Of a stretch of DNA of 29,314 bases, positions 2,615-29,314 are shown piece after piece (the stretch's first letter is position 1; every line of letters starts with the position of its first letter). The stretch covers positions 1 to 29,314 of IMG/VR virus record IMGVR_UViG_3300020395_000067. One strand, written 5' to 3'. Below the pieces are notes generated by a model, which worked only from the letters and a program-made list of their open reading frames with translations, was not told the DNA's origin and ran no database searches. Both the position numbers and the translations under genes were made by a program. The DNA comes from a virus. Its lineage: Duplodnaviria > Caudoviricetes.

Positions 2615-5392
2615 ATGAAATCTTTTAGTAATCTTTTATTAGAAAAAGAAGAATTAGAACAACAGAAACAAAAAAAGGTTAAAAAGACAAAACCTACAGT
2701 TGATGTTAAAACTACCAATAGACCTGCAGAGGTTCAGGGTAGGATGGATGCTACTGATCCAAAGCAAGGTGGATATTCTCGTGTAGATGATAGTTTAGAT
2801 AGTAAATCATCAAGAAAAACAAGATTAGGTGATACAACTAAAGGTAGTGAAGTAAAAGTTACTAAACCTAAAGGTACTCTTGCAGGTGATGAGGCAAGAG
2901 ATTTAGGTAAATTAAATAAAAGAACTGGTAAATTAAATTGGGAAAAGAATGCTGAATTACAGGCAAAGAGAAAGCAACGTATAGATATTAAAACTGGTAA
3001 AGCAACACAAAAAGGTGTTGAGAACTTTGCATTAAATCGTGGTGGATATAGTAGAAGAAATATTCCAAAATCAGAGTTAGGTCAAATTAGAACAGATGCT
3101 AGAAGAATAGCAAGTAATCCTTCAAGTCGTGCATATAAAGAAATCGAAGCTTCGATAAATGCTAGTGACTATGCTGGAAGGAGAGCAAAGGGTGATCCCA
3201 ATGCAGCAAAGTTATCTGATGTAAAGAAAGCACTTGATTCTAAAAAAGGTAAGTTTGGAGTAGGAAGTGCTAATCCAACTCGTATTGGAAAGTCTGGTGG
3301 TAAACTTCCTGTACCAACAACAATTGGGGTAAAACAATCTGAAGTTTCTAAAAAAGCAAAAGCATTTCGTCAGACGATAGAAAAGATAAAACAAAAGAAA
3401 GCAAGTGAGATAAAGGATCCTTGGAAAACTTCTAAAGTTTCTAAAGGGACAACTTTTGATAATATAGGAACAAAGAAATATGATGTACCTGGTACTGGTC
3501 CTAAAAATCCAAATCCAGATTACTTAGCTAAGATGCAGAGGGGTGCTTCTGGAATGGATAGTAATGTTGGTGGTGGAGCAGGTGGAACTACTGGAAATAC
3601 AACATTTAAAGATTTTACTAAGAAATCTGGTGTTGCTAAAACTGGTAAATCACTTGAAGTAAGAAATACACCTAAAAATAAATTTAGTAGAATTACTAAT
3701 AAGGGTAATATAATAAATATTGATCCAAAAACTGGAGCTAAGACTTTTGGTGGAACGGCAAAGGATACTTCTAGTGCAATTGTTCCTTACAAAAAAGGTG
3801 GTGATCTTGCTGGCAAGATCCCCAGTGATCTTGCTAGAAGTGGAACTAAGGGATCAGATTTAGTTACACATAGTGCTAAACTTGGTAAACTTAGTCAAAC
3901 TAAACGAGCAGGAGATTTAAAGAAATTTGCTGATTTCAGGAAAACGGCTAATCCTTTACTTGGAAAGAATCTATCAAAGAACCTTACTAAGATTACAGGT
4001 AAAAAAGCACTGAAAGTACTTGGTAAACCACTTGCTGGTGTTGTAGACACTGCATTTGGATATGATCAATATAGAAGGAAAGGACATAGTAAAGCTGGTT
4101 CGTTAGTTAGAGGTGCCATAAAGGGTGGTGCTAGTGCTTTAGGATTTGCTGGTGGTGCTCTTGCTGGTGGTCTTGCTGGTGGTGGTATTGGTTCTCTTGT
4201 CACTGGAGCAGCAGGTGGTTATGCTGGATCAGAGCTTGCTGGTAATCTTGCTGATAAGATAATTGGTTCAGTTGATAAAAAATTAAAACTTAAAACACCT
4301 AAAAAATATCAGAGAAAGATAACTGGTGGTGGAACTAGTGGCGGATCAATACCTGGTCCAGGTAAGGGTAGTTCAGGTAAGTATAACTTTACTCCATTAT
4401 CACTTGGAACTAGTACAAAGGATTATAATAAAGGACAATCTGCACCTTGGAAGACTAAGAAAGAATCAGTTGAATATGTTCAAGAACGATTTAGAAGTCA
4501 AGCTATACAGACTTATCTTAAGAATAAGGCGGGTCAGCAAGATTTAACTAATAAAGCAAATAAGTTTAAACAGGAAAATCCAGGAACAGATTTTTCTAAA
4601 GGTGCTAGGATGTCAAATCCAAATTTGACACCATCTTCATCCTTTAATAATAACTCTACACAACAACCAGTACCAACTCAAACTACACAAGCAAGACCTC
4701 TTGGACCAACACAACGGGCTGCCGCTAATATTGATAAAATTGCATCTAGTGGACCAGGAAGTGGTAGTGTAAAGGTTGATGGTAGGGCACTTATGAATAA
4801 ATTAAGATCTGATAGTAGTAATCAAACACAGAGTAGTACCCCACAAGCACAACAAGCACAACGACCTGCACCACAAGCACAACGACCTGCACAACAAGCA
4901 CAACAAGTACAACGACCTGCACAACAAGCACAACAAGCACAACGACCTGTAGCACAAGCACAACCACAAAGAACGGTTGGTGGACAAGGTAACAGACAAA
5001 GACCTGTAAAAACTGGTGGTATTCAGTTAGGTAATGCAGTCAGAAAACCTATAGGTAGTGCAATTAATGCTGTACGAAGTGCTTTATCTAATAAAGGACC
5101 AATACGAGGAAGATCAGGTGCTAATGCTGCAATGAAAGCTAAAGGACTTGCTGGTGCTACTGGTGGATCTGGTGGTACTGCTCCACTTGCAAAACCAGTT
5201 ACACAAGCACCTGTAGCAAAACCAGTTACACAAGCACCTGTAGCAAAACCTGCTCCACAATTAACTGGTGCTCAACGGGCTCAGCAAATGGCAAAGCAGA
5301 GAATAGCTCAAGGTAGAAATACAGTTACTGGTGCTCTTAAATCTGCAGCAAAACCTAAACCTAGAGTTACAACCTGGAGAGATCTGGAGTAA
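2615..5392 (+). CDS. Large Lys/Gly/Gln-rich low-complexity protein, probable capsid-internal virion protein
   Basis: 925 aa ORF after a late promoter. N-terminus MKSFSNLLLE resembles T4 capsid-targeting leaders. Contains a glycine-zipper hydrophobic segment and Q/A/P repeats. Function is inferred. Confidence 0.7.
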   Translation: MKSFSNLLLEKEELEQQKQKKVKKTKPTVDVKTTNRPAEVQGRMDATDPKQGGYSRVDDSLDSKSSRKTRLGDTTKGSEVKVTKPKGTLAGDEARDLGKLNKRTGKLNWEKNAELQAKRKQRIDIKTGKATQKGVENFALNRGGYSRRNIPKSELGQIRTDARRIASNPSSRAYKEIEASINASDYAGRRAKGDPNAAKLSDVKKALDSKKGKFGVGSANPTRIGKSGGKLPVPTTIGVKQSEVSKKAKAFRQTIEKIKQKKASEIKDPWKTSKVSKGTTFDNIGTKKYDVPGTGPKNPNPDYLAKMQRGASGMDSNVGGGAGGTTGNTTFKDFTKKSGVAKTGKSLEVRNTPKNKFSRITNKGNIINIDPKTGAKTFGGTAKDTSSAIVPYKKGGDLAGKIPSDLARSGTKGSDLVTHSAKLGKLSQTKRAGDLKKFADFRKTANPLLGKNLSKNLTKITGKKALKVLGKPLAGVVDTAFGYDQYRRKGHSKAGSLVRGAIKGGASALGFAGGALAGGLAGGGIGSLVTGAAGGYAGSELAGNLADKIIGSVDKKLKLKTPKKYQRKITGGGTSGGSIPGPGKGSSGKYNFTPLSLGTSTKDYNKGQSAPWKTKKESVEYVQERFRSQAIQTYLKNKAGQQDLTNKANKFKQENPGTDFSKGARMSNPNLTPSSSFNNNSTQQPVPTQTTQARPLGPTQRAAANIDKIASSGPGSGSVKVDGRALMNKLRSDSSNQTQSSTPQAQQAQRPAPQAQRPAQQAQQVQRPAQQAQQAQRPVAQAQPQRTVGGQGNRQRPVKTGGIQLGNAVRKPIGSAINAVRSALSNKGPIRGRSGANAAMKAKGLAGATGGSGGTAPLAKPVTQAPVAKPVTQAPVAKPAPQLTGAQRAQQMAKQRIAQGRNTVTGALKSAAKPKPRVTTWRDLE
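4841..4965 (+). repeat. Coding tandem repeats (imperfect 21-30 bp units, QQAQQAQRPA)
   Basis: Four copies of caacgacctg with interspersed acaacaagc/ccacaagc units. Confidence 0.85.
5189..5250 (+). repeat. 27-bp coding tandem repeat x2.3 (AKPVTQAPV)
   Basis: gcaaaaccagttacacaagcacctgta at 5189-5215 and 5216-5242, plus partial gcaaaacc. Confidence 0.9.
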
Positions 5393-5443: not shown

Positions 5444-6700
5444 ATGTCTTATAAGCACCTAGAAGATATTCAGAATATCTATGAAAATATTTCTGAACCT
5501 ATAGATAAGCAATTAGTTTCAGAAGCAAGTGCAATTTTAATTGATACTATGTTCTCTGAAGGGTATTCAGAAAATGCCATTGCTCAATATGCATTAAATG
5601 CGAATCCAGACGATATTGTAGAAAGGATTGCAGTTGCTGCAGAGAATTATATTTACATAGAAGCATCTCAACTTAATGAAAGTATTGATGGTGTAGAGTA
5701 TGAGATATTAGAAGAAAATTCTCAACAAGTAGCAAACCTACAAGAATTAGTTGAAAAGGCAATAATAGGAAGAGCACTTGGTGCATTAAAAAAAGTTGCT
5801 GCACCTGCATTTAAAGGATTAAAGGGATCTGGAAAAGAAGCTCTTAACCTTGGTAAAAAGATTGGTGGTAAGGTTGCTGAAAAAGGTAAAGCATTAGTTT
5901 CTGGTGCTGGTAATGCATTAAGACCTGTAGGTAATGCTATCAAGAAATATGGTCCTACAGCAGCAATTGCTGGTGGAGCAGGTCTTGTTGGTGTACCTCT
6001 AGCTATTGGTGCTGCTAAGGGTTTATATAAGGCAGGTAAGAAGGTTGCTAGTACTGTTGGTACTTTTGTGAAGGGTGGTGCTGATGCTGTTAAGGATAAG
6101 AATATCTCAAAACAGGTAGATGATTATGTTAAGAAAAATAAAGGTGACAAACCAATAAGAAAGATTGATCCAACACCTTATAATCGTCAAGAGAAACCTA
6201 AGTCTAAAGTTGTACCAGGTAGTGAAAAGATAATACCTGCACGTCCAGCAAATCCTAGTGGTAAAGAGTTACCAAAAGCAAGAACAATTGGTTCTGGTAA
6301 AGGACAGGTTAATCCTAATTCTGCTAGAGGCAAGATGATTGCACAGAATAAGGAAAGATTTGGTGGGGATAAAGTTGAGAAGTTAAGAGATAAGAATGCT
6401 GCTTTCCAAAAAGCCAAGAAGAAAGGAAGTGGATATAGTATGGATGATTTTGCAAAAGACTTTCCAAATTCTAACACAGCAAAGGAAAGAAACAAAAGAA
6501 ATAGGGTTACTTCTGTAATGGATATGGAATCCTATGATGCTTTTGATATTGTTAGTAACTATCTAATAGAATCAAATCAAGTTGAGAATATGGATGAAGC
6601 ACTATATGTAATGAGTGAAATGGATGCTACAACTATTCAAGGTATTGTAAATGAGCATCATCAAAAAGATGAAAATGGTAATACAATCCCACACGAGTAG
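5444..6700 (+). CDS. Cyanophage protein, probable capsid-internal protein
   Basis: 418 aa. Acidic N- and C-terminal domains (ESYDAFDIVSNYLIES...EALYVMSEMD) flank a basic Gly/Ala/Lys-rich core with one hydrophobic segment. Late promoter upstream. Confidence 0.7.
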   Translation: MSYKHLEDIQNIYENISEPIDKQLVSEASAILIDTMFSEGYSENAIAQYALNANPDDIVERIAVAAENYIYIEASQLNESIDGVEYEILEENSQQVANLQELVEKAIIGRALGALKKVAAPAFKGLKGSGKEALNLGKKIGGKVAEKGKALVSGAGNALRPVGNAIKKYGPTAAIAGGAGLVGVPLAIGAAKGLYKAGKKVASTVGTFVKGGADAVKDKNISKQVDDYVKKNKGDKPIRKIDPTPYNRQEKPKSKVVPGSEKIIPARPANPSGKELPKARTIGSGKGQVNPNSARGKMIAQNKERFGGDKVEKLRDKNAAFQKAKKKGSGYSMDDFAKDFPNSNTAKERNKRNRVTSVMDMESYDAFDIVSNYLIESNQVENMDEALYVMSEMDATTIQGIVNEHHQKDENGNTIPHE

Positions 6701-9623: not shown

Positions 9624-10310
9624 ATGACTGTTGATAATTTTGCAAAGCAGTTAAAGGAAGGAACTAAAAAATCTCATTCAGCAGCAGAAAACACTGCTTT
9701 TGTAAAATCCTTTTTAAAGGGTGTTGTGAATAAAGAAAGTTATAGGGGATTAATTAGTGATTTCTATTTTGTATATACTGCTTTAGAGGAAGAAGTTAGT
9801 AAACTACATGATCATCCAGTAGTTGGATGTTTGGATCTTCCAGATCTGAGAAGAAAATTAGCATTAGAAATGGATGTTAGATATTACTATGGACCTATTT
9901 GGAGATCTCTCATTAAACCGTCAGAAGCGTGTGAGAGGTATGTAAACCGTATTCATGAGGTAGCAAAAAATGAACCAGAACTTTTGGTTGGTCACCATTA
10001 CACCAGATACTTGGGCGACCTCTCAGGGGGTCAAATCCTTAAGGGAATTGCTGAAAAAGCTATGGAATTGGGGAATGGGCAAGGTCTCAAATTTTACGAG
10101 TTTGAAAAAATAGAAGATCCTAAAGCATATAAAGCGGGATATAGGGGAATTCTTAATGATTTACCTATAGATCAGCACCAAGCAGATGCTATAATAGTGG
10201 AAGCAAATTATGCTTTTAGATTGAATATGTATATGTTTGATACTCTAGAAGGTAATTGGTTTAAATCTTTACTTCAAATTTTTATTAGTTCAATTTTTAA
10301 AAAGAAATGA
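9624..10310 (+). CDS. ho1: Heme oxygenase (ferredoxin-dependent, biliverdin-producing)
   Basis: LKEGTKKSHSAAEN (proximal His), HHYTRYLGDLSGGQIL signature, EANYAFRLN. Start placed at ATG 9624 after GGAGG. Confidence 0.96.
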   Translation: MTVDNFAKQLKEGTKKSHSAAENTAFVKSFLKGVVNKESYRGLISDFYFVYTALEEEVSKLHDHPVVGCLDLPDLRRKLALEMDVRYYYGPIWRSLIKPSEACERYVNRIHEVAKNEPELLVGHHYTRYLGDLSGGQILKGIAEKAMELGNGQGLKFYEFEKIEDPKAYKAGYRGILNDLPIDQHQADAIIVEANYAFRLNMYMFDTLEGNWFKSLLQIFISSIFKKK

Positions 10311-10606
10311 TTTTTTTATCAACTCCATCAGTGTATAATTTACCTGGTACATGGGAGAAACAACCTATGATCCATCATTTAAATCTTACTCCCGATCAAG
10401 GATTTATCTTATTCTTTGGTCTAGTTCTTTTTGGTTTAGTTGGATGGGGATTATATCTTACAGTAGGAGGTGGCAAGAAAGAATTGAGAGATCCTATTGA
10501 TGAACACGCAAAGATGCACGAACTTGGAATTGCTCACGGTCATGGTGGAAATAAAGAGGCATATGAAATGTCTGGAAAGTTAAAACATTCACACGATGAT
10601 GATTAA
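10307..10606 (+). CDS. psbN: PsbN-like protein with His-rich C-terminal extension
   Basis: TM helix followed by GWGLYLTVG...LRDPIDEH, matching the PsbN pattern G.ALY..FG.....LRDPFEEH. ATGA overlap with ho1. Confidence 0.7.
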   Translation: MIFLSTPSVYNLPGTWEKQPMIHHLNLTPDQGFILFFGLVLFGLVGWGLYLTVGGGKKELRDPIDEHAKMHELGIAHGHGGNKEAYEMSGKLKHSHDDD

Positions 10607-14176: not shown

Positions 14177-15075
14177 TTCCTTATATTAATACGCAGAATC
14201 CATCAATACCAAATGTAGGTATTAGAGGAGTGGGTATTAGAGGAGTTCAATTTCTTAATGTTAGAACTTCTAATATAAGAAATTTAAATATTGCAGATAA
14301 TCGTGTATGGATGAATGAACCACCAAAAGCAGTTCCTCCTGAAGTTCCTGTTGTTGTAGAGATAGGTAAACCCATTGTGGATATGCCTGGATGTGTCAAA
14401 GTTCATAAAGAGAATTTAAAGCAGAGATCAAAAAATAAAATGCTTGTGGATGATGATCCTAAAGGTAATACTACCTTGTGTGATTCTGGTATGCCTTATT
14501 ATGAACCACCTGATTATCAATATAGCGGTTTAACTTGGACTACTGTAGTTCCTGAAGAACCTGAGCAAGAACCGCAAGAGAATACTCCACCAGATGCACC
14601 AGATCCTCCAACACCACCAGGAGCACCAACTTTACCAGAATCTAGTGAAGAGAAAGAATGTCCTGGACCTGGTGATCTACGTGTAGGTGATTACACTACA
14701 AGTGGAAACGAAAAGGTTTCAGGACATGAATGGAATAAGGATAAAACTGTATGTATTACTTTATATGAGGATGTAGGATTTGTTGAAAAGTATCTACCTA
14801 GTCCTCAGATTGTGACGACGACTGCGACGATTGCTGTTGTTGCGACTTCATCCGCCCTACTTGCCAAACCCCTAGCAGATCTGCTCCTGAAGGTGATAAA
14901 GCCTCTTGTGAAGAAGGTTTCTGCCAAGGTAAAGAAAGCCCTCGGAAAAACCCCTTACCGTCCAACTGCTTCTGAGATAAGGACAAATCAGTATCGGGAG
15001 AAGAAGGGTTTGCTTCCAAAGAATTTTGAGAAGGAGTATCAGAAGAAGATGAAGAAGACTGAGAAGAAGAAGTAG
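14173..15075 (+). CDS. Membrane-anchored protein with Pro-rich linker and Cys pairs
   Basis: Two Cys-pair subdomains separated by a P/E-rich linker, TM-like TTATIAVVATSSALLA, basic tail. Confidence 0.8.
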   Translation: MIPYINTQNPSIPNVGIRGVGIRGVQFLNVRTSNIRNLNIADNRVWMNEPPKAVPPEVPVVVEIGKPIVDMPGCVKVHKENLKQRSKNKMLVDDDPKGNTTLCDSGMPYYEPPDYQYSGLTWTTVVPEEPEQEPQENTPPDAPDPPTPPGAPTLPESSEEKECPGPGDLRVGDYTTSGNEKVSGHEWNKDKTVCITLYEDVGFVEKYLPSPQIVTTTATIAVVATSSALLAKPLADLLLKVIKPLVKKVSAKVKKALGKTPYRPTASEIRTNQYREKKGLLPKNFEKEYQKKMKKTEKKK

Positions 15076-15892
15076 TAGTATTTCCTAATTGGTGTGTATG
15101 ATCTGGAAGTGAACCAGGTTTTGCTTGTGTTACTACTACATCAGCACATATAGAAGCATAAGGTGAACGAGGATGGAATATAATACCTTTCTGCATTAAT
15201 TCACCACAATTTTTTAGACGTGCGATCTCAAAGTCTAATCTTTTGTTAGCAACTAGTTGAGTTGCCATATCGTTTTGTGCTTGTGCTGCTTCATGGCATT
15301 GGCGTACCATTTTTCTATTGAGTGGTATAGAAAGAGTAGCAGATAAACCTAAGTTAAGACTTTGGTTCGCTTTCATATCAGTACGAACTGGTTTCTGCCA
15401 GATTTGTTTACCAGGATTATCAGGTATACCATCAGGACCATCTACATCTACAGTAATCTCCATAGGAACACCATCTTCCCACCATCTATCGGGTTGTCCA
15501 TCACCATCTACATCATAGAGTGGGTCATCAGGGTCACTTCTTACTGTTGTGTTATACCAAGGTTCCCAAGGATAGTTTTTTACGGTAGTGGTTTGTTCTG
15601 TAATTTTACCAGTGAAGTCTGTCATATCATATTGGGGTTCATAATAAAAATCTTCCCAAGGATCTTTTCTACTATCTGCAAACTGTACGTATGGTGTAAG
15701 GTTAAACGTACTACCTTGACAACTAACACCACCACCATAGGTGTTAGTTATGTATGGCCCCTGGAGGACCTGTATAGCTTGGTTAGTTACCGAGCCAGAT
15801 GAGTTAGCTATTGGATTTGCAGTTGCCGATACACCACCAACGCCTTGTGCTAGTGCGACGTTAGGACATAAAAGACTACTACAAGTTGCTAT
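14798..15892 (-). CDS. Exported/outer-membrane-type protein (start codon uncertain)
   Basis: Signal-peptide-like ...LLCPNVALA then QGVGGVSATANP. Frame is open back to 16195, but that part overlaps the upstream gene. Confidence 0.75.
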   Translation of the reverse strand: MATCSSLLCPNVALAQGVGGVSATANPIANSSGSVTNQAIQVLQGPYITNTYGGGVSCQGSTFNLTPYVQFADSRKDPWEDFYYEPQYDMTDFTGKITEQTTTVKNYPWEPWYNTTVRSDPDDPLYDVDGDGQPDRWWEDGVPMEITVDVDGPDGIPDNPGKQIWQKPVRTDMKANQSLNLGLSATLSIPLNRKMVRQCHEAAQAQNDMATQLVANKRLDFEIARLKNCGELMQKGIIFHPRSPYASICADVVVTQAKPGSLPDHTHQLGNTTTSSSQSSSSSSDTPSQNSLEANPSSPDTDLSLSQKQLDGKGFFRGLSLPWQKPSSQEALSPSGADLLGVWQVGRMKSQQQQSSQSSSQSED

Positions 15893-16353
15893 TGTGTAAA
15901 GGTACTTGTTGTATCGGTTATGCTTTCTATTACTGTTGTTCTTTGAATTATTGTTTGATTTGTCATTCCTGGTCCAGAATATGTCTGGGTAAATTGAAAT
16001 GCGTCTCCAGGATTGTGTATTGTAAATGCTGTTTGGCCTGAGAGATCTAATGAGTCGAATGAACTTGTTACTGATCCCGTTACTTCTCCTGTTCCGTCCA
16101 CTGTAGGACTTACTTGAACTGTCGTTGTATTCACGTTGGGGTTCAATGGTGCACCGTTGTTGTCGATGCCTACCCCAGTCACTGTGTATTCCCATCCTGT
16201 TCTAAAATCCACTGAATTAATTGTTTCCGTCACGTTTGACGTTGTTTCTGTATGGCTAGTCATTGATCCCTGGGTAAAATTAGGGACCACGGGAACTGCT
16301 TTCACAACAGTCCCTGCATTAAGTAACAGTAACACCGCTAGGAGTTTCTTCAT
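15889..16353 (-). CDS. Exported Thr-rich beta-strand protein
   Basis: Signal peptide MKKLLAVLLLLNAGTVVKA. T/S/G-rich mature region. Confidence 0.85.
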   Translation of the reverse strand: MKKLLAVLLLLNAGTVVKAVPVVPNFTQGSMTSHTETTSNVTETINSVDFRTGWEYTVTGVGIDNNGAPLNPNVNTTTVQVSPTVDGTGEVTGSVTSSFDSLDLSGQTAFTIHNPGDAFQFTQTYSGPGMTNQTIIQRTTVIESITDTTSTFTQ

Positions 16354-16367
16354 AATATATATGAATC

Positions 16368-16886
16368 CTACTTGACGGTAATTTCTGAAACAAATTGTCC
16401 TGTAGCTGAAGTTCCAGCTCCACCAGCTGTTATTGTCATTACACCTGCTGAAGTGATTGTACCCGCTAAGGTTCCAGCAACGCCTCCAGATTGTGTGGTA
16501 ACGTTACCATATGCTGGCATATCTGCTACGACACCACTGGTTACGTCTACACCAGAACCTATAGTATTTACAGAGTCTCCTGAAGTGAAACTTTCCGAGA
16601 AGCTGAAAGCCGAGCCCGCAGTGTTAATGTCGTATGTACCAGCATCAAGCGTTGCGGCTGCAGTACCACTAGGTGTAACTAATTTGCCAAAATGATCATC
16701 CGCAGATGCCACTTTGATATTGTTACCACTTACAGCATATGTTGAACCAACACGGTTAGCGACAGTTGCAGCTCCATCTACGTTGAGCTGAGTAGAAGTA
16801 GTCAAACGGTGAACTAAATCAGCATTTGCTGGTGCTACCACGGCACCTGTCATCAATAACATCACAATAGGTAGAAATTTTTTCAT
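16368..16886 (-). CDS. Exported Gly/Ala/Thr-rich beta-strand protein
   Basis: Signal peptide MKKFLPIVMLLMTGAVVAPANA. CTAAATA late-promoter variant about 30 nt upstream (16914-16920). Confidence 0.85.
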   Translation of the reverse strand: MKKFLPIVMLLMTGAVVAPANADLVHRLTTSTQLNVDGAATVANRVGSTYAVSGNNIKVASADDHFGKLVTPSGTAAATLDAGTYDINTAGSAFSFSESFTSGDSVNTIGSGVDVTSGVVADMPAYGNVTTQSGGVAGTLAGTITSAGVMTITAGGAGTSATGQFVSEITVK

Positions 16887-20078: not shown

Positions 20079-20408
20079 ATGACAGAAGAGGCAATTAAAA
20101 AGATCCTTCCTCACCTTTGTTATACTAAAGAAGAAGTTGATATAATGATTCGTGCGGCTGTGGAAGAGGCAAGAGCAATTGATGAAGCATCAATGGCAAA
20201 GCATAATCGAGAGGCAACTGTAATTAGTATGATTCTTGGATTTACTTGCTTGGCATTATTTGTTGATGGATTACTTAGAATATTGGGAATCATTCCTCCC
20301 TTTATGCATCTTGATGTAAATATAATTGATAAAGTCACAGAAAGAGTTGAGACTGATGTTATTGATAAGATAAAGCAAGTTCCATTACAAAAAATATTAA
20401 GAAGATGA
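20079..20408 (+). CDS. Membrane protein of unknown function
   Basis: TM segment ISMILGFTCLALFVDGLLRILGIIPPF. TGaTATAAT at 20042-20050. Confidence 0.8.
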   Translation: MTEEAIKKILPHLCYTKEEVDIMIRAAVEEARAIDEASMAKHNREATVISMILGFTCLALFVDGLLRILGIIPPFMHLDVNIIDKVTERVETDVIDKIKQVPLQKILRR

Positions 20409-20575
20409 AGAAACTATTATTACTAGCACCACTCTTAGTTGGATGCACTAATGCAGGTATGGGTAGTATCAACTGGAGTAATCCAGGAGTACCAGACTCA
20501 TACACTTGTGAAGAAGTAGCAGATCCAGCAAACTATTGTGCTACAGGTGAACACCCTAACCTATGTGAATGCTAA
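20405..20575 (+). CDS. 56-aa Cys-rich lipoprotein (not in ORF track)
   Basis: MKKLLLLAPLLVG-C lipobox plus four further Cys. ATGA overlap. Confidence 0.7.
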   Translation: MKKLLLLAPLLVGCTNAGMGSINWSNPGVPDSYTCEEVADPANYCATGEHPNLCEC

Positions 20576-20709
20576 TGATTTTAGAAACATTCCTGATACT
20601 AGCAGCACTTCCATTCGTAGGATTAACAATCTTCTTTGGAACAAAGAACGGATATTATGATAGTGATGATTATCAAGGTGATGGTTGTGCTCACGATGTA
20701 AAACGATGA
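20575..20709 (+). CDS. ndhP: NDH-1 complex small subunit NdhP (not in ORF track)
   Basis: [44 protein letters not shown] matches the NdhP pattern P.......FFGT.NG.YD.D.Y.G.G.AH. TAATG overlap. Confidence 0.88.
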
Positions 20710-20846
20710 ACTCACTTTTTAAAATCTTTTATACAAAATGGTTTAGGTCTGCACCAGTTGTAGCAACTATATGGTTGACTATTACAGCAGTTATTCTTAT
20801 TGAGTTTAATTACTTCTTCCCAGACCTTTTATTTCATCCAATGTAA
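20706..20846 (+). CDS. psaJ: Photosystem I reaction centre subunit IX (not in ORF track)
   Basis: [46 protein letters not shown] carries the PsaJ signatures APV...W and IE.N..FPDLL. ATGA overlap. Confidence 0.93.
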
Positions 20847-21388
20847 TGAAAGCAGTTTTTAATTACTTAAAAGAAATTAGAGATACTGCCAAGTATATGT
20901 GGCAAGGGTTAGAAGTAACCTTTGATCATATGAGAAGGCGACCTGTCACCATACAATACCCTTATGAAAAACTTATCCCTTCTGAGCGTTATCGAGGCCG
21001 TATTCATTACGAGTTTGATAAATGTATTGCTTGTGAAGTATGTGTTCGTGTATGCCCAATAAATCTCCCAGTAGTCGATTGGGTGATGAACAAACAAACA
21101 AAGAAAAAAGAACTAAGAAACTATTCAATTGATTTTGGAGCTTGTATATTCTGTGGAAACTGTGTAGAATACTGTCCTACCAATTGTTTAAGTATGACGG
21201 AGGAATATGAACTTTCTACATTCGATAGGCACTCACTCAACTTTGATAATGTCGCTCTTGGACGACTGCCCACTTCTGTTACAAGTGATCCCTCAGTTAG
21301 GGCAATGCGTGAACTTGCTTATTTACCAAAAGGAGAAATGGATCCGCATGAAGTACCCGATAGTGAACCCCGTGTAGGTGCAAGATGA
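20846..21388 (+). CDS. ndhI: NAD(P)H-quinone oxidoreductase (NDH-1) subunit I
   Basis: VTIQYPYEK...RYRGRIH, two 4Fe-4S motifs [12 protein letters not shown] and [21 protein letters not shown]. Confidence 0.97.
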
Positions 21389-21480
21389 TTGATACTTCAC
21401 CTAGTTCTATAAGAGTATTCTTTATAATTGTTTTATCGATTGCTTGGTTAGTTATTTTCAATTTACCCACAGAGGAATAA
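21385..21480 (+). CDS. 31-aa single-TM micropeptide (not in ORF track)
   Basis: [31 protein letters not shown]. Coupled to both neighbours (ATGA and TAATG). Confidence 0.65.
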
Positions 21481-21779
21481 TGGCTGCAATTTTTATATTC
21501 AGTTGGTTAATGTTATTGGTGTTTGCGGTAAGATTAATATTTAAAGGATGGTCTGCTGCTTCACAGTTAGGTGGAAAACAGTATATTGATGAAGGAACAA
21601 GATATGTAACCAGAGTTCAACATCCAGAAATGGCAGAAGTTAAACCTGGTGATGAGTTAATGGTAGTGAACTTTAAGAAACCACCATCTAAAGATCCATT
21701 GTTAAGATCATTAGAGGATCGTATTGATGAATTGAAGGATGATGATGACGATGATGGTGATATTATTGCAAGAGCTTGA
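21480..21779 (+). CDS. DUF2973-like cyanobacterial membrane protein
   Basis: N-terminal TM, HPEM...DELMVVNF, acidic tail. Start moved to ATG 21480 (GAGG RBS). Confidence 0.65.
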   Translation: MAAIFIFSWLMLLVFAVRLIFKGWSAASQLGGKQYIDEGTRYVTRVQHPEMAEVKPGDELMVVNFKKPPSKDPLLRSLEDRIDELKDDDDDDGDIIARA

Positions 21780-22996: not shown

Positions 22997-23929
22997 ATGG
23001 ATTTAAGTATTGTCCTTGGAGGACGTGATGATAATTATGGTGAAAATTTCATAGAAAGATTACATCAGGTTTTAGATACAAATCTACGTTTGTTAGATAA
23101 TTGTGATTTAGAATCTGAAGTTATTGTTGTGGATTTTAATCCTATAGATGAAAAGTATCTGTATGAACATCCTCAGTTAAAAGAATCTTTATCAAATACA
23201 AGAGTTAAAAATATCATATTTGATAATAGTGTAGTAGTAGAGGAAAACTTAAATCCTACAACTTATTATGAATACTTTGCAAAGAATGCTGGTATAAGAG
23301 TTTCTACAGGGGAACTTATATTTGTAACCAATTCTGATATATTGTTAACTGAAGATCTATTAGATAAGATTAAGGTTGAATTGACTAATGAAGATAGGGA
23401 TAATTATTTTTATAGAGTAAGGTATAGGGGTGATATTTCATTAGGAGATTCTCCATCACCATCTCCTAGAATAATTCCTAACGGTGATGTTTTGACAGGA
23501 CCATTGAATGGGTGGGGTGATCCCGAACAAGTTCTTGATTTATACCAAAATCTTATACATCATAATTTACTTGGTCAAGATCCTGTCATTGGGTTATGGT
23601 CTGGTGATGCATCTATGTTCTCTAGGAATGTGATGAATACTGTTACTGGATATAATGAAGGTGAAATGGGTCATAGAACAAGTTTACATCAATGTAGTAT
23701 GGATAGTGAAATATTGTGGTGTTGTAAATTAAATGGTAAAGAATTAAAACTCTTAGAAGCACCTTATTATCACATATATCACGGTGATAGACCACCAAGA
23801 GATACTTTATATAATCAATCACAATATAAGAATAAAGATAATTGGGGTTTTGTTGATTATAATAAAGTTGACATTAATGACAATACGGTGCTAATATATG
23901 GAAAAGATGCAACTATTGAATATGAATAA
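22997..23929 (+). CDS. Putative GT-A fold glycosyltransferase
   Basis: LSIV..., EVIVVD, AKNAGIR...GELIFVTNSDI (DxD-like), late HIYH motif. Confidence 0.7.
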   Translation: MDLSIVLGGRDDNYGENFIERLHQVLDTNLRLLDNCDLESEVIVVDFNPIDEKYLYEHPQLKESLSNTRVKNIIFDNSVVVEENLNPTTYYEYFAKNAGIRVSTGELIFVTNSDILLTEDLLDKIKVELTNEDRDNYFYRVRYRGDISLGDSPSPSPRIIPNGDVLTGPLNGWGDPEQVLDLYQNLIHHNLLGQDPVIGLWSGDASMFSRNVMNTVTGYNEGEMGHRTSLHQCSMDSEILWCCKLNGKELKLLEAPYYHIYHGDRPPRDTLYNQSQYKNKDNWGFVDYNKVDINDNTVLIYGKDATIEYE

Positions 23930-24266
23930 TTTTGGTAAACTATTTGATGAATCTATAAAGGATACTGTTAATGAGGTTTTACTAAAAGGTGAACTTCCAG
24001 ATATAGTTTTTGCCGAAACTGATAATCTTGGTGAGGTTGTAGAGAAACTTTGTATCTTACATATCCGTACTTGGATGTTAGAAGATGCTGCACAAGAAGC
24101 ATCATCTGATGAAGAGTTAGGTGCATTAAAAAGAAAAATAGATATTTGTTTTAAACAAAAGAGACCAAAATTAGTTCAAGCAATTAATAGATTAGTTTCA
24201 GATTCTATTGTAAATAATACTTCTTTGGTTGAGGATTCTGTAAAACTCTACAAGGGTGTTGAATGA
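23922..24266 (+). CDS. Helical hypothetical protein (DUF4254-like)
   Basis: GEVVEKLCILHIRTWMLED...KRKID pattern. Start uncertain (23898 or 23922). Confidence 0.6.
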   Translation: MNNFGKLFDESIKDTVNEVLLKGELPDIVFAETDNLGEVVEKLCILHIRTWMLEDAAQEASSDEELGALKRKIDICFKQKRPKLVQAINRLVSDSIVNNTSLVEDSVKLYKGVE

Positions 24267-24838
24267 GTGTACTTTCTTTCTTTAAAGATCATATAGATGC
24301 AATCCAATACTCTTTGGATAATGTAGATTCTATGAAGGTATATGATTTAGTAGATCTTCTTTTAGATACTAAAGGGAAAATATTTTTTACTGGAATTGGA
24401 AAGAATGGTCATGTTGCTGCAAAAGCAGCGTCAACATTTTCATCTATAGGATTACCTTGTTTTTATATTAACGCTGTTGATAGTGTACATGGTGATATGG
24501 GTGTAATAAATCAGAAAGATACAATAATTGCAATATCAAAGAGTGGTAATACAGAAGAGTTAATACATTTTTTGCATCATGTGAAACATAAAAATTGTAA
24601 GATAGTTTCTATTCATTCTAATCCGAATAATAAGTCACTTGATTATTCTTATATGGATATAGATTTGCATGTAGATCAAGAAGCAGATCATCTTAATATT
24701 GTTCCTACTTGTTCTATTGCAGTATTTACTGTGTTTTTGCAATCAGTTGCTTGTGAGATTTCATCTATTAGAGAATTGACTATTGAACAGTTTGTTTCTA
24801 ATCATCCTGGTGGTAGTATAGGGCAGATAAAGATATGA
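24263..24838 (+). CDS. SIS-domain sugar-phosphate isomerase (KdsD/GutQ-like, no CBS domains)
   Basis: TGIGKNGHVAAK, HGDMG, ISKSGNTEE, PT.S, HPGG motifs. Confidence 0.88.
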   Translation: MSVLSFFKDHIDAIQYSLDNVDSMKVYDLVDLLLDTKGKIFFTGIGKNGHVAAKAASTFSSIGLPCFYINAVDSVHGDMGVINQKDTIIAISKSGNTEELIHFLHHVKHKNCKIVSIHSNPNNKSLDYSYMDIDLHVDQEADHLNIVPTCSIAVFTVFLQSVACEISSIRELTIEQFVSNHPGGSIGQIKI

Positions 24839-26355
24839 ATATTACTAATGATGATATAAAATATGTGATTGTTCAGGCGGGTGGTAAAGGAACTCGTATG
24901 GGACGTTTTGCTGAGAATAAACCAAAATGTCTTGTTCCTGTTAATGATATTCCAATTATTGTTAATACTTTAAATGTATATAAGGATAAGAAGGTTATTA
25001 TAATTGCTGATTATTTGTCTAATGTATTAGAGACATATTTGAATGTATTTTATAATGGAGATAATTATAATGTATTGCAGACTAATGAGATTGGTACTGC
25101 AGGTGGACTTACTGAAGCAGTTAGTTTAATTCCAGATAAAGAACCCTTTATATTAACTTGGGCAGATTTATTTTTTGAGGAGAAATTAAATTTCTCTTTT
25201 AATAATGAATTACTTGTAGGATTATCTGATACATTTAAGTGTCGTTGGAAGTTGGATAATAATAAATTTATAAATGAAGCATCAACGGAAATAGGTGTTG
25301 CAGGATTTTTTGTTTTTAAAGATAAGGAAAGATTTAATAATTTAAAAATAGATAAGTCTTTAGTTAGAGGATTTCTAAGTGATGATTATACATCAGAAGA
25401 TATTGATAGTTTCTATCTTAAAAAATGTTTTGAGGTTGGTGAGAAAGATAGATATGAAAGATTAATATCTAAAAGGATTACTCATAGATTTTTTAATGAA
25501 GTTAAGATAAAGGGTGATAAAGTTTATAAAAAATGTATTGATTCTAGATATGATGATGTTCATAGGAAAGAAAAGAGTTGGTATAAAGCAATTGGTGGTA
25601 GATTAAAAAATATTCCTACAATACATTCTATTAATCCTCTCATAATGGATAGGATAAATGGAGAACATTTATGGAATATTAAGAAAAACAAAAAAAATAT
25701 AATCGAAAATTATTGTGATGCTTTAGATTCTCTTCATAATCTGGTAAAAGTTGAATCAAACTATGAGGATATGATTGATGTATATTATACTAAAGCGTAT
25801 AATAGGGTTATGGAAGTTGAAGATATTGTTAGATTTATTGATGATGATATTATAATAATTAATAATAAGGAATGTATTAATCCATTTTACAATAAAGATA
25901 GATTTGAACGTATTATTAAATCTGTAGCATCTCAAGAATACTTTAATATAATTCATGGAGATGTTACTTTTAGTAATACTTTAGTTGATTCTAATAATGA
26001 TATATGGTTTATAGATCCTCGTGGATCTTTTGGTAGTACTGAAATATATGGAGATAGAAGATATGATTGGGCAAAGTTTTATTATTCAGCATTTGGTAAT
26101 TATGATTCTATCAATACTAAAAAATATAGAGTTAGAATATATAACAGGCAGGTTGATTTACAAATAAAATCTAATGGTTATGAAGAATATTCTGATTATA
26201 TTATTGAAAGGTCTGGTATGAGTAAGAGAGAGATGGGAATATTACATGCGTCCATTTGGTTATCTCTTACAGGTTATGTGAAGGAAGATATTGATGCTAT
26301 TTTGTATTCATTTTATAGAGGATGTCAATTATGGACAGAAGCAATTTCCCTTTAG
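24835..26355 (+). CDS. Nucleotidyltransferase fused to APH/choline-kinase-like phosphotransferase
   Basis: N-terminal QAGGKGTRM...KPKCL. C-terminal IHGDVTFSN, FIDPRG, YDWAK. Confidence 0.85.
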   Translation: MNITNDDIKYVIVQAGGKGTRMGRFAENKPKCLVPVNDIPIIVNTLNVYKDKKVIIIADYLSNVLETYLNVFYNGDNYNVLQTNEIGTAGGLTEAVSLIPDKEPFILTWADLFFEEKLNFSFNNELLVGLSDTFKCRWKLDNNKFINEASTEIGVAGFFVFKDKERFNNLKIDKSLVRGFLSDDYTSEDIDSFYLKKCFEVGEKDRYERLISKRITHRFFNEVKIKGDKVYKKCIDSRYDDVHRKEKSWYKAIGGRLKNIPTIHSINPLIMDRINGEHLWNIKKNKKNIIENYCDALDSLHNLVKVESNYEDMIDVYYTKAYNRVMEVEDIVRFIDDDIIIINNKECINPFYNKDRFERIIKSVASQEYFNIIHGDVTFSNTLVDSNNDIWFIDPRGSFGSTEIYGDRRYDWAKFYYSAFGNYDSINTKKYRVRIYNRQVDLQIKSNGYEEYSDYIIERSGMSKREMGILHASIWLSLTGYVKEDIDAILYSFYRGCQLWTEAISL

Positions 26356-26690
26356 ACGATTTAGTAAAAACTTGGATATTTGATCTTGATGGAACTTTAG
26401 TAGTTCATAATGGATATAAAGAAGGTGTTGATACTTTACTTTCAGGTGTTAAAGAATTTTATGAAAAGAATGTTAGAAGGGATGATTATATATTAATAAT
26501 AACTGCAAGAGAATCTAAATTTAAGGGTATTGCTGAGAAGTGTCTTCTTGACAATGGAATATATTATGATAAAATTATATACGATACACCAAGAGGTGAA
26601 AGGATACTTATTAATGATCGAAAGCCTTGGGATGGTGGATTAGATACTGCTTATTCATTTAATATAGATAGAAATCATTTTGACTTATAA
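26322..26690 (+). CDS. HAD-superfamily phosphatase (capless type)
   Basis: IFDLDGTL, ITAR, LINDRKP. Confidence 0.85.
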   Translation: MSIMDRSNFPLDDLVKTWIFDLDGTLVVHNGYKEGVDTLLSGVKEFYEKNVRRDDYILIITARESKFKGIAEKCLLDNGIYYDKIIYDTPRGERILINDRKPWDGGLDTAYSFNIDRNHFDL

Positions 26691-27567
26691 AGGTATTATA
26701 TTGGCTGGTGGTGAAGGAACTAGATTATTTCCAGCAACTTCTGTTGTATCAAAACAATTAATGAATGTATATGACAAACCTCTTATCTATTATCCTCTGA
26801 CTACTTTAATGCTTGCTGGCATTAAGGATATATTAATTATTACTAATTTACATCATTTGCATAGTTATCATAACCTATTAGGTAATGGATCTAATTTTGG
26901 GGTATCTATAGGATATAGGGTTCAGGAAGAACCAAATGGATTGCCAGAAGCATTTATAATTGCTGAAGATTTTATTGGTGATGATAATGTTTGTATGGTA
27001 TTGGGTGATAATATTATATTTGGAAATAATTTAGATCTTATTTTGAGAGACTGTCAAAATAATGAAGGTGCTACAGTATTAACATATCCAGTAAAAGATG
27101 CTCACAGATTTGGTGTGGTTGAATTTGAAGGTGAGGATGGACATCTTGATAGGGGAAAAGTATTATCTATTGAGGAAAAACCTGATAACCCAAAATCAAA
27201 TAGAGCATTAACTGGATTATATTTTTTTGATAATAGATGTATTGAGTATGCTAAACAACTTACTCCCTCTAAAAGAAATGAATTGGAAATGGTTGATTTG
27301 TGTAAGAAGTATTTAAATAATAAGGAATTGATGGTTAAAAATTTAACCAGAACAATGACTTGGATTGATGCAGGAACATTTGATTCTCTTCTCCTAGCAT
27401 CTAATTTAATTTGTAATTTAGAAAAGATACAATCATATAAGATATCTTGTCCTGAAGAAGTTGCATTTAAAAATGGATGGATAAGTGATTCTGATTTGGT
27501 GTCTATTGCTAATTCATATCCAAAAGGAGAATATCAAGATTATCTTAAAGATTTACAATTATTATGA
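26680..27567 (+). CDS. rmlA: Glucose-1-phosphate thymidylyltransferase
   Basis: KGIILAGGEGTRLFP, SKQL..VYDKP, LGDN, EKP, WIDAGT. TTG start. Confidence 0.95.
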   Translation: MTYKGIILAGGEGTRLFPATSVVSKQLMNVYDKPLIYYPLTTLMLAGIKDILIITNLHHLHSYHNLLGNGSNFGVSIGYRVQEEPNGLPEAFIIAEDFIGDDNVCMVLGDNIIFGNNLDLILRDCQNNEGATVLTYPVKDAHRFGVVEFEGEDGHLDRGKVLSIEEKPDNPKSNRALTGLYFFDNRCIEYAKQLTPSKRNELEMVDLCKKYLNNKELMVKNLTRTMTWIDAGTFDSLLLASNLICNLEKIQSYKISCPEEVAFKNGWISDSDLVSIANSYPKGEYQDYLKDLQLL

Positions 27568-28496
27568 CAGTTTTTATTACAGGCGGTGCTGGATTTATTG
27601 GTAGCAATTTTGCACATTGTATGCAACCATATGATGTTGTTATTCTTGATAAGTTAACTTATGCTGGAGATGTAGATAATTTATATCCATTAGATTTTCC
27701 TGTTAAGGGAGTTGATTTGGCATATAAGAGTCGTTTAGAAGAATTGTTTAATCAATATAGACCTAAATTTATATTTAATTTTGCGGCAGAAACTCATGTC
27801 GATAATTCAATTAATGATGCATATCCTTTTATTGATTCTAATATTATTGGGACAGTCAATTTACTTGATCTTTCAGTAAAATATGATGTTGAAAGATTTC
27901 ATCATATATCTACAGATGAAGTTTATGGGGCACTAGGATATGATGACCCACCTTTTACTGAGACTACACCATACAATCCATTAAATCCTTATTCAGCATC
28001 TAAGGCAGCGAGTGATCATTTTGTTATGACTTATCATAACACTTATGGATTACCTGTTACAATTACTAATTGTTCTAATAACTATGGACCAAGACAACAT
28101 ATTGAAAAGTTAATTCCTAAAACCATTTGTAATATATTGTCTAATAAAAAGATACCTGTTTATGGTAAAGGTGAGAATATTAGGGATTGGATTTATGTTG
28201 AAGATCATTGTAAGGGGATATTAGATGTTTTTTATGGTGGTAAGATTGGAGAAAAATATAATATTGGAGGAGAATGTGAAGTTAAAAATATAGATTTGAT
28301 TAAAATGATTATTAAATTAATGGGTGCTAGTGAGAATTTAATTGAATTTGTTGATGATCGTCCAGGACATGACTTGCGTTATGCTATTGATAATGCTAAA
28401 ATTAAAAATACAGTAGCCTTTAAACCTCAACATACACTTGAGGAAGGTTTGAAAAAAACTATTGAATGGTATGAGAGCAGAAGAAACAAATATTAA
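27564..28496 (+). CDS. rmlB: dTDP-glucose 4,6-dehydratase
   Basis: TGGAGFIG, AAETHVD, ISTDEVYG, YSASK, NNYGP, DRPGHD.RYA. Confidence 0.96.
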   Translation: MTVFITGGAGFIGSNFAHCMQPYDVVILDKLTYAGDVDNLYPLDFPVKGVDLAYKSRLEELFNQYRPKFIFNFAAETHVDNSINDAYPFIDSNIIGTVNLLDLSVKYDVERFHHISTDEVYGALGYDDPPFTETTPYNPLNPYSASKAASDHFVMTYHNTYGLPVTITNCSNNYGPRQHIEKLIPKTICNILSNKKIPVYGKGENIRDWIYVEDHCKGILDVFYGGKIGEKYNIGGECEVKNIDLIKMIIKLMGASENLIEFVDDRPGHDLRYAIDNAKIKNTVAFKPQHTLEEGLKKTIEWYESRRNKY

Positions 28497-29013
28497 AGGT
28501 GCATTTATTATCACCAATAATATTTTTGAAGATAAAAGAGGATTCTTTATGGAGTCTTTTAATGAAAAGGTATTTGGTAATAATATTGGATCATTTGATT
28601 TTGTTCAGGATAATCATTCTAAATCTTCTAAAGGTGTTTTAAGAGGATTGCACTATCAAATAGAACATCCTCAAGGGAAGTTGGTTAGATGTACTCAAGG
28701 TGCAATCTATGATGTTATTGTAGATATTAGAGAACAGTCTCCTACGTTTGGTAGGACTTTCGCAACAGTATTAGATAGACCAGAAGTACAACTTTGGGCA
28801 CCACCTGGATTGGCACATGGATTTTATACATTAAGTGATACAGCAGAGTTTGAATATAAGGTTACGGATTATTATTATCCAGAGTATGATAGAACACTTC
28901 TATGGAATTCTAGTGGAATGAATATTGCTTGGCCAACTAAAGATCCTATTCTTTCTGATAAGGATATAAATGGAAAATCTTTTGACGAATGTGAGAAATA
29001 TGCTATAATATAG
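28471..29013 (+). CDS. rmlC: dTDP-4-dehydrorhamnose 3,5-epimerase
   Basis: DKRGFFMESFN, FVQDNHS.S..GVLRGLHYQ, AHGF, YK. Start at ATG 28471. Confidence 0.95.
   Translation: MRAEETNIKGAFIITNNIFEDKRGFFMESFNEKVFGNNIGSFDFVQDNHSKSSKGVLRGLHYQIEHPQGKLVRCTQGAIYDVIVDIREQSPTFGRTFATVLDRPEVQLWAPPGLAHGFYTLSDTAEFEYKVTDYYYPEYDRTLLWNSSGMNIAWPTKDPILSDKDINGKSFDECEKYAII
28982..29009 (+). promoter_or_regulatory. Sigma70-type promoter within the rmlC 3' end
   Basis: TTGACG, 16 bp spacer ending in TGc, then TATAAT, 21 nt before ATG 29031. Confidence 0.55.
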
Positions 29014-29030
29014 TTAATGAATTGTCTTAT

Positions 29031-29314
29031 ATGAAAATACGTGATTCGGTTTTGCCAGTTCTTCGTCCTCTTGGAGGTGATGAAGAGATAGCATCAATAG
29101 CAGAATCTATTAAGAGTGGATGGTGGGGTAAAGGACCTAAAGTATCTCAGTTTGAAAAAGAATTTGCTGAGATGGTTGGTGCTAAGTATGCTGTAGCAGT
29201 AACTAGTAATACTGCTGGTCAGGATCTTTTATTAAAAGCAAAGGGTATAAAGGATTGTGATGTAATCAATCCTACAATGTCTTTTATGACTACTGCTATG
29301 GTTCCTTTATGGAA
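29031..29314 (+). CDS. DegT/DnrJ/EryC1/StrS family PLP-dependent sugar aminotransferase (3' truncated)
   Basis: MKIRDSVLPVLRP...SGWWGKGPKVSQFEKEFAEMVGAKYAVAVTSNTAG...P.MSF.TT. Open to the window end. Confidence 0.88.
   Translation, partial: MKIRDSVLPVLRPLGGDEEIASIAESIKSGWWGKGPKVSQFEKEFAEMVGAKYAVAVTSNTAGQDLLLKAKGIKDCDVINPTMSFMTTAMVPLW

Follow-up and report, generated by a model that had tools for sequence, protein, structure and literature searches.

Cyanophage NDH-1 genes are credited to Alperovitch-Lavy 2011, Sharon 2011, Nowaczyk 2011, and Philosof 2011 (via PMC10452541, PMC3877843, and PMC3903132). In the portions of the literature available to us, cyanophage ndhI, ndhD, and ndhP are described together with a proposed role in cyclic electron flow and ATP supply (PMC10452541, PMC3877843, PMC3903132, PMC6596454, PMC12801897), and a single viral psaJ is given as one of three known organizations of viral photosystem I (PSI) genes (Sharon et al. 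2011, via PMC4511924 and PMC5019241). Each of the three genes treated here, ndhP, psaJ, and ndhI, is in print from cyanophages, as the first-pass annotation of this DNA had said, and so is the cyclic-flow proposal for phage NDH genes. We found no literature description of the three genes as a trio; the scaffold maps or supplements of Sharon 2011 and Philosof 2011 may already show it, and the parts of PMC5083919 and bioRxiv 109157 available to us hold nothing on it.

Roles of such subunits in photosynthetic organisms are described in sources of the same kind. NdhI docks ferredoxin and is the first to accept electrons (PMC6992706, PMC7021789), and NdhP, found specifically in NDH-1L, holds that complex together (PMC4131877, PMC11794437); NDH-1L serves both respiration and cyclic flow (PMC4131877). 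In algae and plants PsaJ supports PsaF, and the contact of the two on the lumenal side influences the docking of plastocyanin (PMC11449065).

The window, by which we mean the whole stretch of 29,314 bases that was analyzed, is also the whole virus record. The contig is that of a T4-like cyanomyovirus with Kyanoviridae as its closest annotated relatives, and because of these relatives and its position in the ndhI tree the host is likely to be Prochlorococcus. Beyond the trio, one finds nrdA/B, heme oxygenase, a PsbN-like gene (10307-10606; PF02468 at the cut-off) that overlaps heme oxygenase, nfu, talC, pstS, a cyanophage outer-membrane protein, and sugar-nucleotide genes. The latter lie with glycosyltransferase genes at 22997-29312 (SIS domain, NTP transferases, epimerases), where the GC content is low (25-31%). 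Two long low-complexity ORFs rich in Gly, Lys, and Gln, of 925 aa (2615-5392) and 418 aa (5444-6700), are each closely preceded by a TATAAATA motif and likely encode late or virion-associated proteins. Three genes (172, 154, and 465 aa; 14798-16886) are on the minus strand of an otherwise plus-strand contig, and related loci show similar blocks.

The first-pass annotation had placed ndhP (44 aa), psaJ (46 aa), and ndhI at 20575..21388, had called PsaJ unfused and NdhI a complete two-cluster protein, and had seen no psaA/B/C/D/E/K in the window. Positions, lengths, and identities stand, with all three genes on the plus strand, and no ORF resembling these psa genes was found among the window ORFs when they were read by eye and 31 of them were compared with Pfam. 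The profile searches that it proposed for all three subunits put PsaJ and NdhI above curated cut-offs; NdhP has no Pfam or NCBIfam match and is supported by a solved structure instead. All three genes are under purifying selection, with dN/dS among viral copies of 0.155 for ndhP (1794/4950 pairs), 0.068 for psaJ (442/1225 pairs), and 0.084 for ndhI (690/2485 pairs), pooled by the Nei-Gojobori method over pairs with pS of 0.05-0.5 only, and no copy of any of them contains an internal stop.

The product of ndhP (20575..20709) is a 44-aa, single-helix NDH-1L subunit whose only profile match is PHROG 2173 ("unknown function"). It matches the solved NdhP structure 6khi_P in phmmer (E 1.2e-8), is 69% identical to the "putative NADH dehydrogenase subunit P" of Prochlorococcus phage P-TIM68, and has the C-terminal G-x-x-NGYYD...G-x-G-x-AH stretch of the NdhP family, conserved in the alignment. 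The NdhP of P-TIM40 has no Pfam match either. Since the gene is short and lacks a Pfam or NCBIfam match here, it is under-annotated; copies without annotation (95.5% identical) occur in P-SSM2 and P-SSM5, and 383 IMG/VR stretches match it. Judged by these matches, ndhP is far commoner in cyanophages than annotation suggests, which contradicts PMC12801897 (2025), where the passages available call it uncommon.

Next in the block, psaJ (20706..20846) encodes PSI subunit IX of the viral lineage, as placed by the tree. It scores 60.1 bits against PF01701 (cut-off 22.4) and 81.5 against NF002743 (cut-off 69), and it is unfused because a stop codon follows directly after residue 46. A PsaJF fusion is absent from the window locus, and PsaJ is 41% identical over 29 aa to the J part of the P-TIM68 PsaJF. 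Viral-lineage PsaJ reads TAVIL and FNY where the host operon copies read TAG/TAS-I and F/W-NR; V thus stands in place of host G or S, and Y, in all viral copies shown, in place of the R of the 13 host operon copies. Solo viral psaJ mostly have M instead of E at residue 33. The TAA that ends the window gene (20844-20846) makes it one residue shorter than most relatives and gives the TAATG junction, most relatives having Q or S as their last residue and an ATGA overlap into the next gene.

The third gene, ndhI (20846..21388), encodes a 180-aa two-cluster subunit of NDH-1 and scores 308.9 against TIGR00403 (cut-off 302.35). Both CxxCxxCxxxC sets, the N6a and N6b ligands, are intact (C60/63/66/70 and C100/103/106/110), and an ungapped alignment to 6hum_I equates K83/K86/K88 with the T. 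elongatus ferredoxin-contact lysines K86/K89/K91. Phage and host copies hardly differ in the core; what differences there are lie mainly in the N-terminal helix and the tail. A phylogeny against hosts, also among the checks proposed at first pass, was run for ndhI and unites the 71 distinct viral sequences in one clade against 20 host rows (SH-aLRT 99), adjoining high-light Prochlorococcus.

The first-pass annotation took the overlapping start and stop codons as coupling the three genes. The overlaps are as it described, ATGA between ndhP and psaJ and TAATG between psaJ and ndhI, but the chain runs on over seven ORFs (20079-21779), and overlaps of -1 or -4 occur at 16 of the 51 same-strand junctions of the window (ORFs picked by hand). 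They therefore weigh little, being generic in the window and extending beyond the trio, and as proof of a coupling specific to these three genes they had to be rejected. The flanking members of the chain, all on the plus strand, are an ORF of 109 aa (PHROG 7360) and a 56-aa Cys-rich, lipoprotein-like ORF upstream (20079..20575), and ORFs of 31 aa and 99 aa (DUF2973-like) downstream (21385..21779). We regard them as neighbors and not as members: on the 44 contigs with the whole trio discussed below, the 109-aa ORF is present in 18, the DUF2973-like ORF in 15, the 31-aa ORF in 5, and the 56-aa ORF in none.

The 56-aa ORF (20405-20575) was also considered as a fourth member and rejected, a trio gene being nearby in only 2 of 30 viral loci. 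It has no Pfam, NCBIfam, or PHROG match, and its C-terminal motif is common to 30 IMG/VR loci. Homologues are found 3' of a second psaJ in three host islands and 5' of a solo viral psaJ at L209 and L210.

No promoter or terminator bounding the trio was found; promoter-like sites numbered 14 against 20 expected, and promoter scans, a late-promoter motif included, gave nothing above chance. Contigs of relatives from four of 20 listed RNA libraries, which may include DNA, cover the trio genes with at most 0.21 of words shared; single contigs among them span ndhP-psaJ and psaJ-ndhI, and one joins the end of ndhI to psaJ, that is, I-P-J minus P. A complex prediction for NdhP and PsaJ returned a score of 0.01, which is evidence neither for nor against binding, and a search for PTOX is uninformative, its controls having given no match either.

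The distribution of the genes among viruses was examined as well. Relatives were drawn from IMG/VR as the best matches to the alleles of the window phage (the best 80 of 192 for ndhI, all 69 for psaJ, and the best 80 of 383 for ndhP); near-duplicates are included and the matches are not independent events, so that linkage is overstated in the counts that follow. All three genes are on 44 of the 69 viral psaJ contigs, pairs are on 4, and psaJ is alone on 21. Of the best 80 ndhI loci, 56 have flanks of at least 700 nt to either side; 46 of these have an ndhP no more than 1.5 kb away, and 27 hold the complete trio. From the side of ndhI, ndhP-ndhI is thus a stable pair and psaJ an add-on, found mostly in one ndhI subclade. 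Solo copies amount to 47/80 for ndhP (best 80 of 383), 21/69 for psaJ, and 21/80 for ndhI (best 80 of 192), some of them cut by contig ends, and to 33/53, 11/39, and 10/56, respectively, after filtering for flanks. These copies rule out an obligate three-gene operon, and with solo occurrence so frequent for every member, the genes need not work together.

The 44 trio contigs fall into 10 neighborhood classes defined by hand, with 2 contigs unclassed. These include the nrdB-purS region (20 contigs), cobT/cobS-like genes (6), terminase, gp46-purM, the helicase loader, the baseplate wedge, gp55-gp47, and an hli cluster; PsbN-like family members are near the trio in 10 of the 44. The gene order is P-J-I in 30 contigs, I-P-J in 10, J-I-P in 3, and P-I-P-J-P in 1. 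The three-gene orders are all cyclic permutations of one another, and at least five order changes are needed on the ndhI tree (recombination could mimic them), for which duplication followed by loss would be the simplest route. As the trio stays together across about ten neighborhoods and in three orders, more than its neighbors do, the label "module" is fair, and the synteny search in viral metagenomes that the first-pass annotation had proposed upholds its coupled module to this extent; the module is not obligate. In sum, the cluster is genuine, frequent, mobile, and optional, and it consists of auxiliary genes already known from cyanophages.

Some details of these loci deserve mention. At L022 the arrangement is P-I-P-J...P, three ndhP around one ndhI and one psaJ, possibly a duplication intermediate. 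An apparent P-I-J order at L043 (2873-3971) is ndhP-ndhI directly 5' of a gene of psaJF type at the end of the contig; it was left out of the order counts, and it links the pair to a probable PSI cassette. Trio loci carry several ndhP allele types. Repeated independent assembly of the trio was set aside: a first AU test rejected a single trio-ndhP clade (p 2e-8), but it is confounded by psaJ losses and its group was named after the tree had been seen, and a fairer AU test gave p 0.098.

One trio-bearing genome, G126, is CheckV-complete at 202.5 kb and contains psbA, with no match for psaA/B, petF, or petE. Neither psaA nor psaB was found in any of four trio-bearing records (this complete one and three partial ones), the P-TIM68 control being positive. 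The block therefore needs no viral PSI core, and its products would act in host complexes.

In cyanobacteria the three genes are apart, as the first-pass annotation had expected. None of 80 cellular ndhI loci has psaJ or ndhP beside it within flanks of up to 4 kb, and in MIT 9107 the three genes are near 467, 741, and 1,092 kb, with psaJ adjoining psaF. Additional psaJ matches without psaF are present in 6 of 121 genomes of the host family, that of Prochlorococcus. These six genomes, of 1.8-1.9 Mb (G002, G063, G082, G097, G110, and G122; L310:1504-1638, L345-L349, and L351), hold a second psaJ of viral type, and decayed extra copies are seen at L311 and L350. This second psaJ carries TAVIL, with G and M replacing E and H of the host motif; four copies are in hli clusters, and in three of these a homologue of the 56-aa ORF follows. 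It groups with viral psaJ in the best tree (99/95), although the AU test leaves host monophyly standing (p 0.125, 123 columns), and is likely a phage-to-host return. One of the carriers, MIT 0916, is probably a low-light (LLI-type) strain, judging by its genome size and its place in the tree.

How might these genes serve the phage? We lean, with some reserve, toward the trio being a mobile block of intact host-derived auxiliary genes whose proteins would slot into host NDH-1L (NdhI and NdhP) and PSI (PsaJ). The proteins would be made during infection and enter the host's own complexes, where the phage subunits would sustain both electron flow from ferredoxin to plastoquinone and the supply of ATP. 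NdhI would supply the iron-sulfur entry point and NdhP would hold the NdhD1/F1 arm on, the pair thereby propping up NDH-1L and hence cyclic flow and respiration; because NDH-1L is also respiratory, such support would serve more than cyclic flow. PsaJ may be an optional companion of this pair and serve to maintain PSI on the side of PsaF. To our knowledge, cyclic flow is not an established function of PsaJ. Contact among the three products is not required, and their genes are likely clustered through shared transcription and joint transfer.

The same data can be read with less function in mind. Three separately useful genes may simply share an 814-base block that is copied and moved whole, psaJ being unconnected with either NDH-1 or cyclic flow, if the T4-like cyanophages maintain a stock of small genes that relocate in blocks; we think this possible but distinctly less probable. 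It is a real rival because other small genes (nfu, PsbN-like, DUF2973, and the 56-aa ORF) shuffle likewise, being found at many sites and also inserted between trio genes. The abundance of solo copies fits it too, as do the failure to reject a single trio origin and the restriction to cyclic permutations plus one P-I-P-J-P contig, which duplication and then loss would give. What speaks for more than passive transport is that the trio stays within 1.5 kb through at least five order changes and about ten neighborhoods while its immediate neighbors drop off, and that the ndhP alleles within it are visibly different. A shift of emphasis toward dark respiration or photoprotection through NDH-1L, and away from light-driven cyclic ATP synthesis, would suit the double role of NDH-1L (PMC4131877), as well as statements in the parts seen that NdhP links NDH-1 with either respiratory or photosynthetic flow (PMC6596454) and that its loss worsens high-light ROS in a mutant background (PMC11794437). 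The phage-type psaJ in hli clusters at four host loci, and the trio beside an hli cluster in one virus, point the same way. PsaJ, however, is a PSI subunit with no role in the dark, and Fridman 2017 reportedly found cyclic flow enhanced by a phage that carries both a PSI cassette and ndhI, so we consider this main benefit very unlikely.

A stronger claim is that modified phage subunits displace those of the host and drive electrons toward the cyclic route with no PSI core of viral origin, a less acidic NdhI hairpin and short tail capturing ferredoxin better and an altered lumen-side loop of PsaJ loosening donor docking at PsaF. We regard this as improbable. Hairpin position 84, which lies between the ferredoxin-contact lysines (PMC7021789, in part), is Q in the window, where the host has E; of 80 viral sequences (best 80 of 192), 58 have Q or K there, and 69 of 79 cellular sequences have E. 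Since E persists in 22 of the 80 viral copies, and A or S is found in 10 of the 79 cellular copies, the departure from E is not fixed in phages and not confined to them. The window NdhI has a shorter tail than host copies, and viral NdhI measures 169-195 aa against 199-223 aa in cells, yet drift may account for short tails and variable ends, and the core hardly varies. The Y of viral PsaJ, set against the R of the host operon copies, could be of interest given the effect of the PsaJ-PsaF contact on plastocyanin docking in algae and plants (PMC11449065, in part). Any functional effect of such phage-specific NdhI and PsaJ residues is something that we infer from the sequences. Also doubtful, when all its parts are taken jointly, is a minimal kit in which a basic-hairpin, clipped-tail NdhI, NdhP, and a changed-loop PsaJ are swapped in for cyclic flow, are selected as a unit, and hop between core-gene junctions by duplication and loss, with psaJ flowing back to high-light islands of low-light Prochlorococcus.

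Should the subunits enter host complexes as we favor, cyanophages could, with less than 1 kb of DNA and no viral PSI core, support or steer electron flow in photosynthesis, which bears on the function of viral ndh and psaJ genes that occur singly. As it stands, the trio is an extension of known auxiliary-gene biology, and its relation to the described systems can be set out as follows. Like the single viral psaJ class (PMC4511924), the window psaJ is unfused and has no other psa genes beside it; unlike that class, 44 of the 69 viral psaJ contigs here also hold ndhP and ndhI, a linkage on which the citing passages are silent. The trio shares ndhI, ndhP, and the proposed role with the published cyanophage NDH-1 genes, which in the parts available are described gene by gene. 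It differs from the viral PSI cassettes (psaJF-C-A-B-K-E-D and psaD-C-A-B) in that neither a PsaJF fusion nor psaA/psaB is among the window ORFs.

Two phages offer the closest comparison. P-TIM68 shares ndhI (86.5%) and ndhP (69%) with the window, both located away from its psaJF-C-A-B-K-E-D cassette, and its NdhI is annotated as "confirmed using proteomics." Homologues of the 109-aa ORF (78%) and of the DUF2973-like ORF are directly before its psaJF (L382:1849-2891); the two neighborhoods are therefore related, and a neighborhood of this type has received photosynthesis genes in at least two phages. P-TIM68 encodes a whole PSI core and a PsaJF fusion, whereas the trio phages searched are without psaA/B. 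In P-TIM40, which infects Prochlorococcus NATL2A, the "hypothetical" PTIM40_27 (L383:2873-3004) is ndhP, 60% identical to that of the window and joined to ndhI by an ATGA overlap; this phage differs from the window in having no psaJ match in its record and a long-form NdhI of 191 aa. With ndhP-ndhI in a cultured phage on NATL2A, P-TIM40 is a practical handle on this pair.
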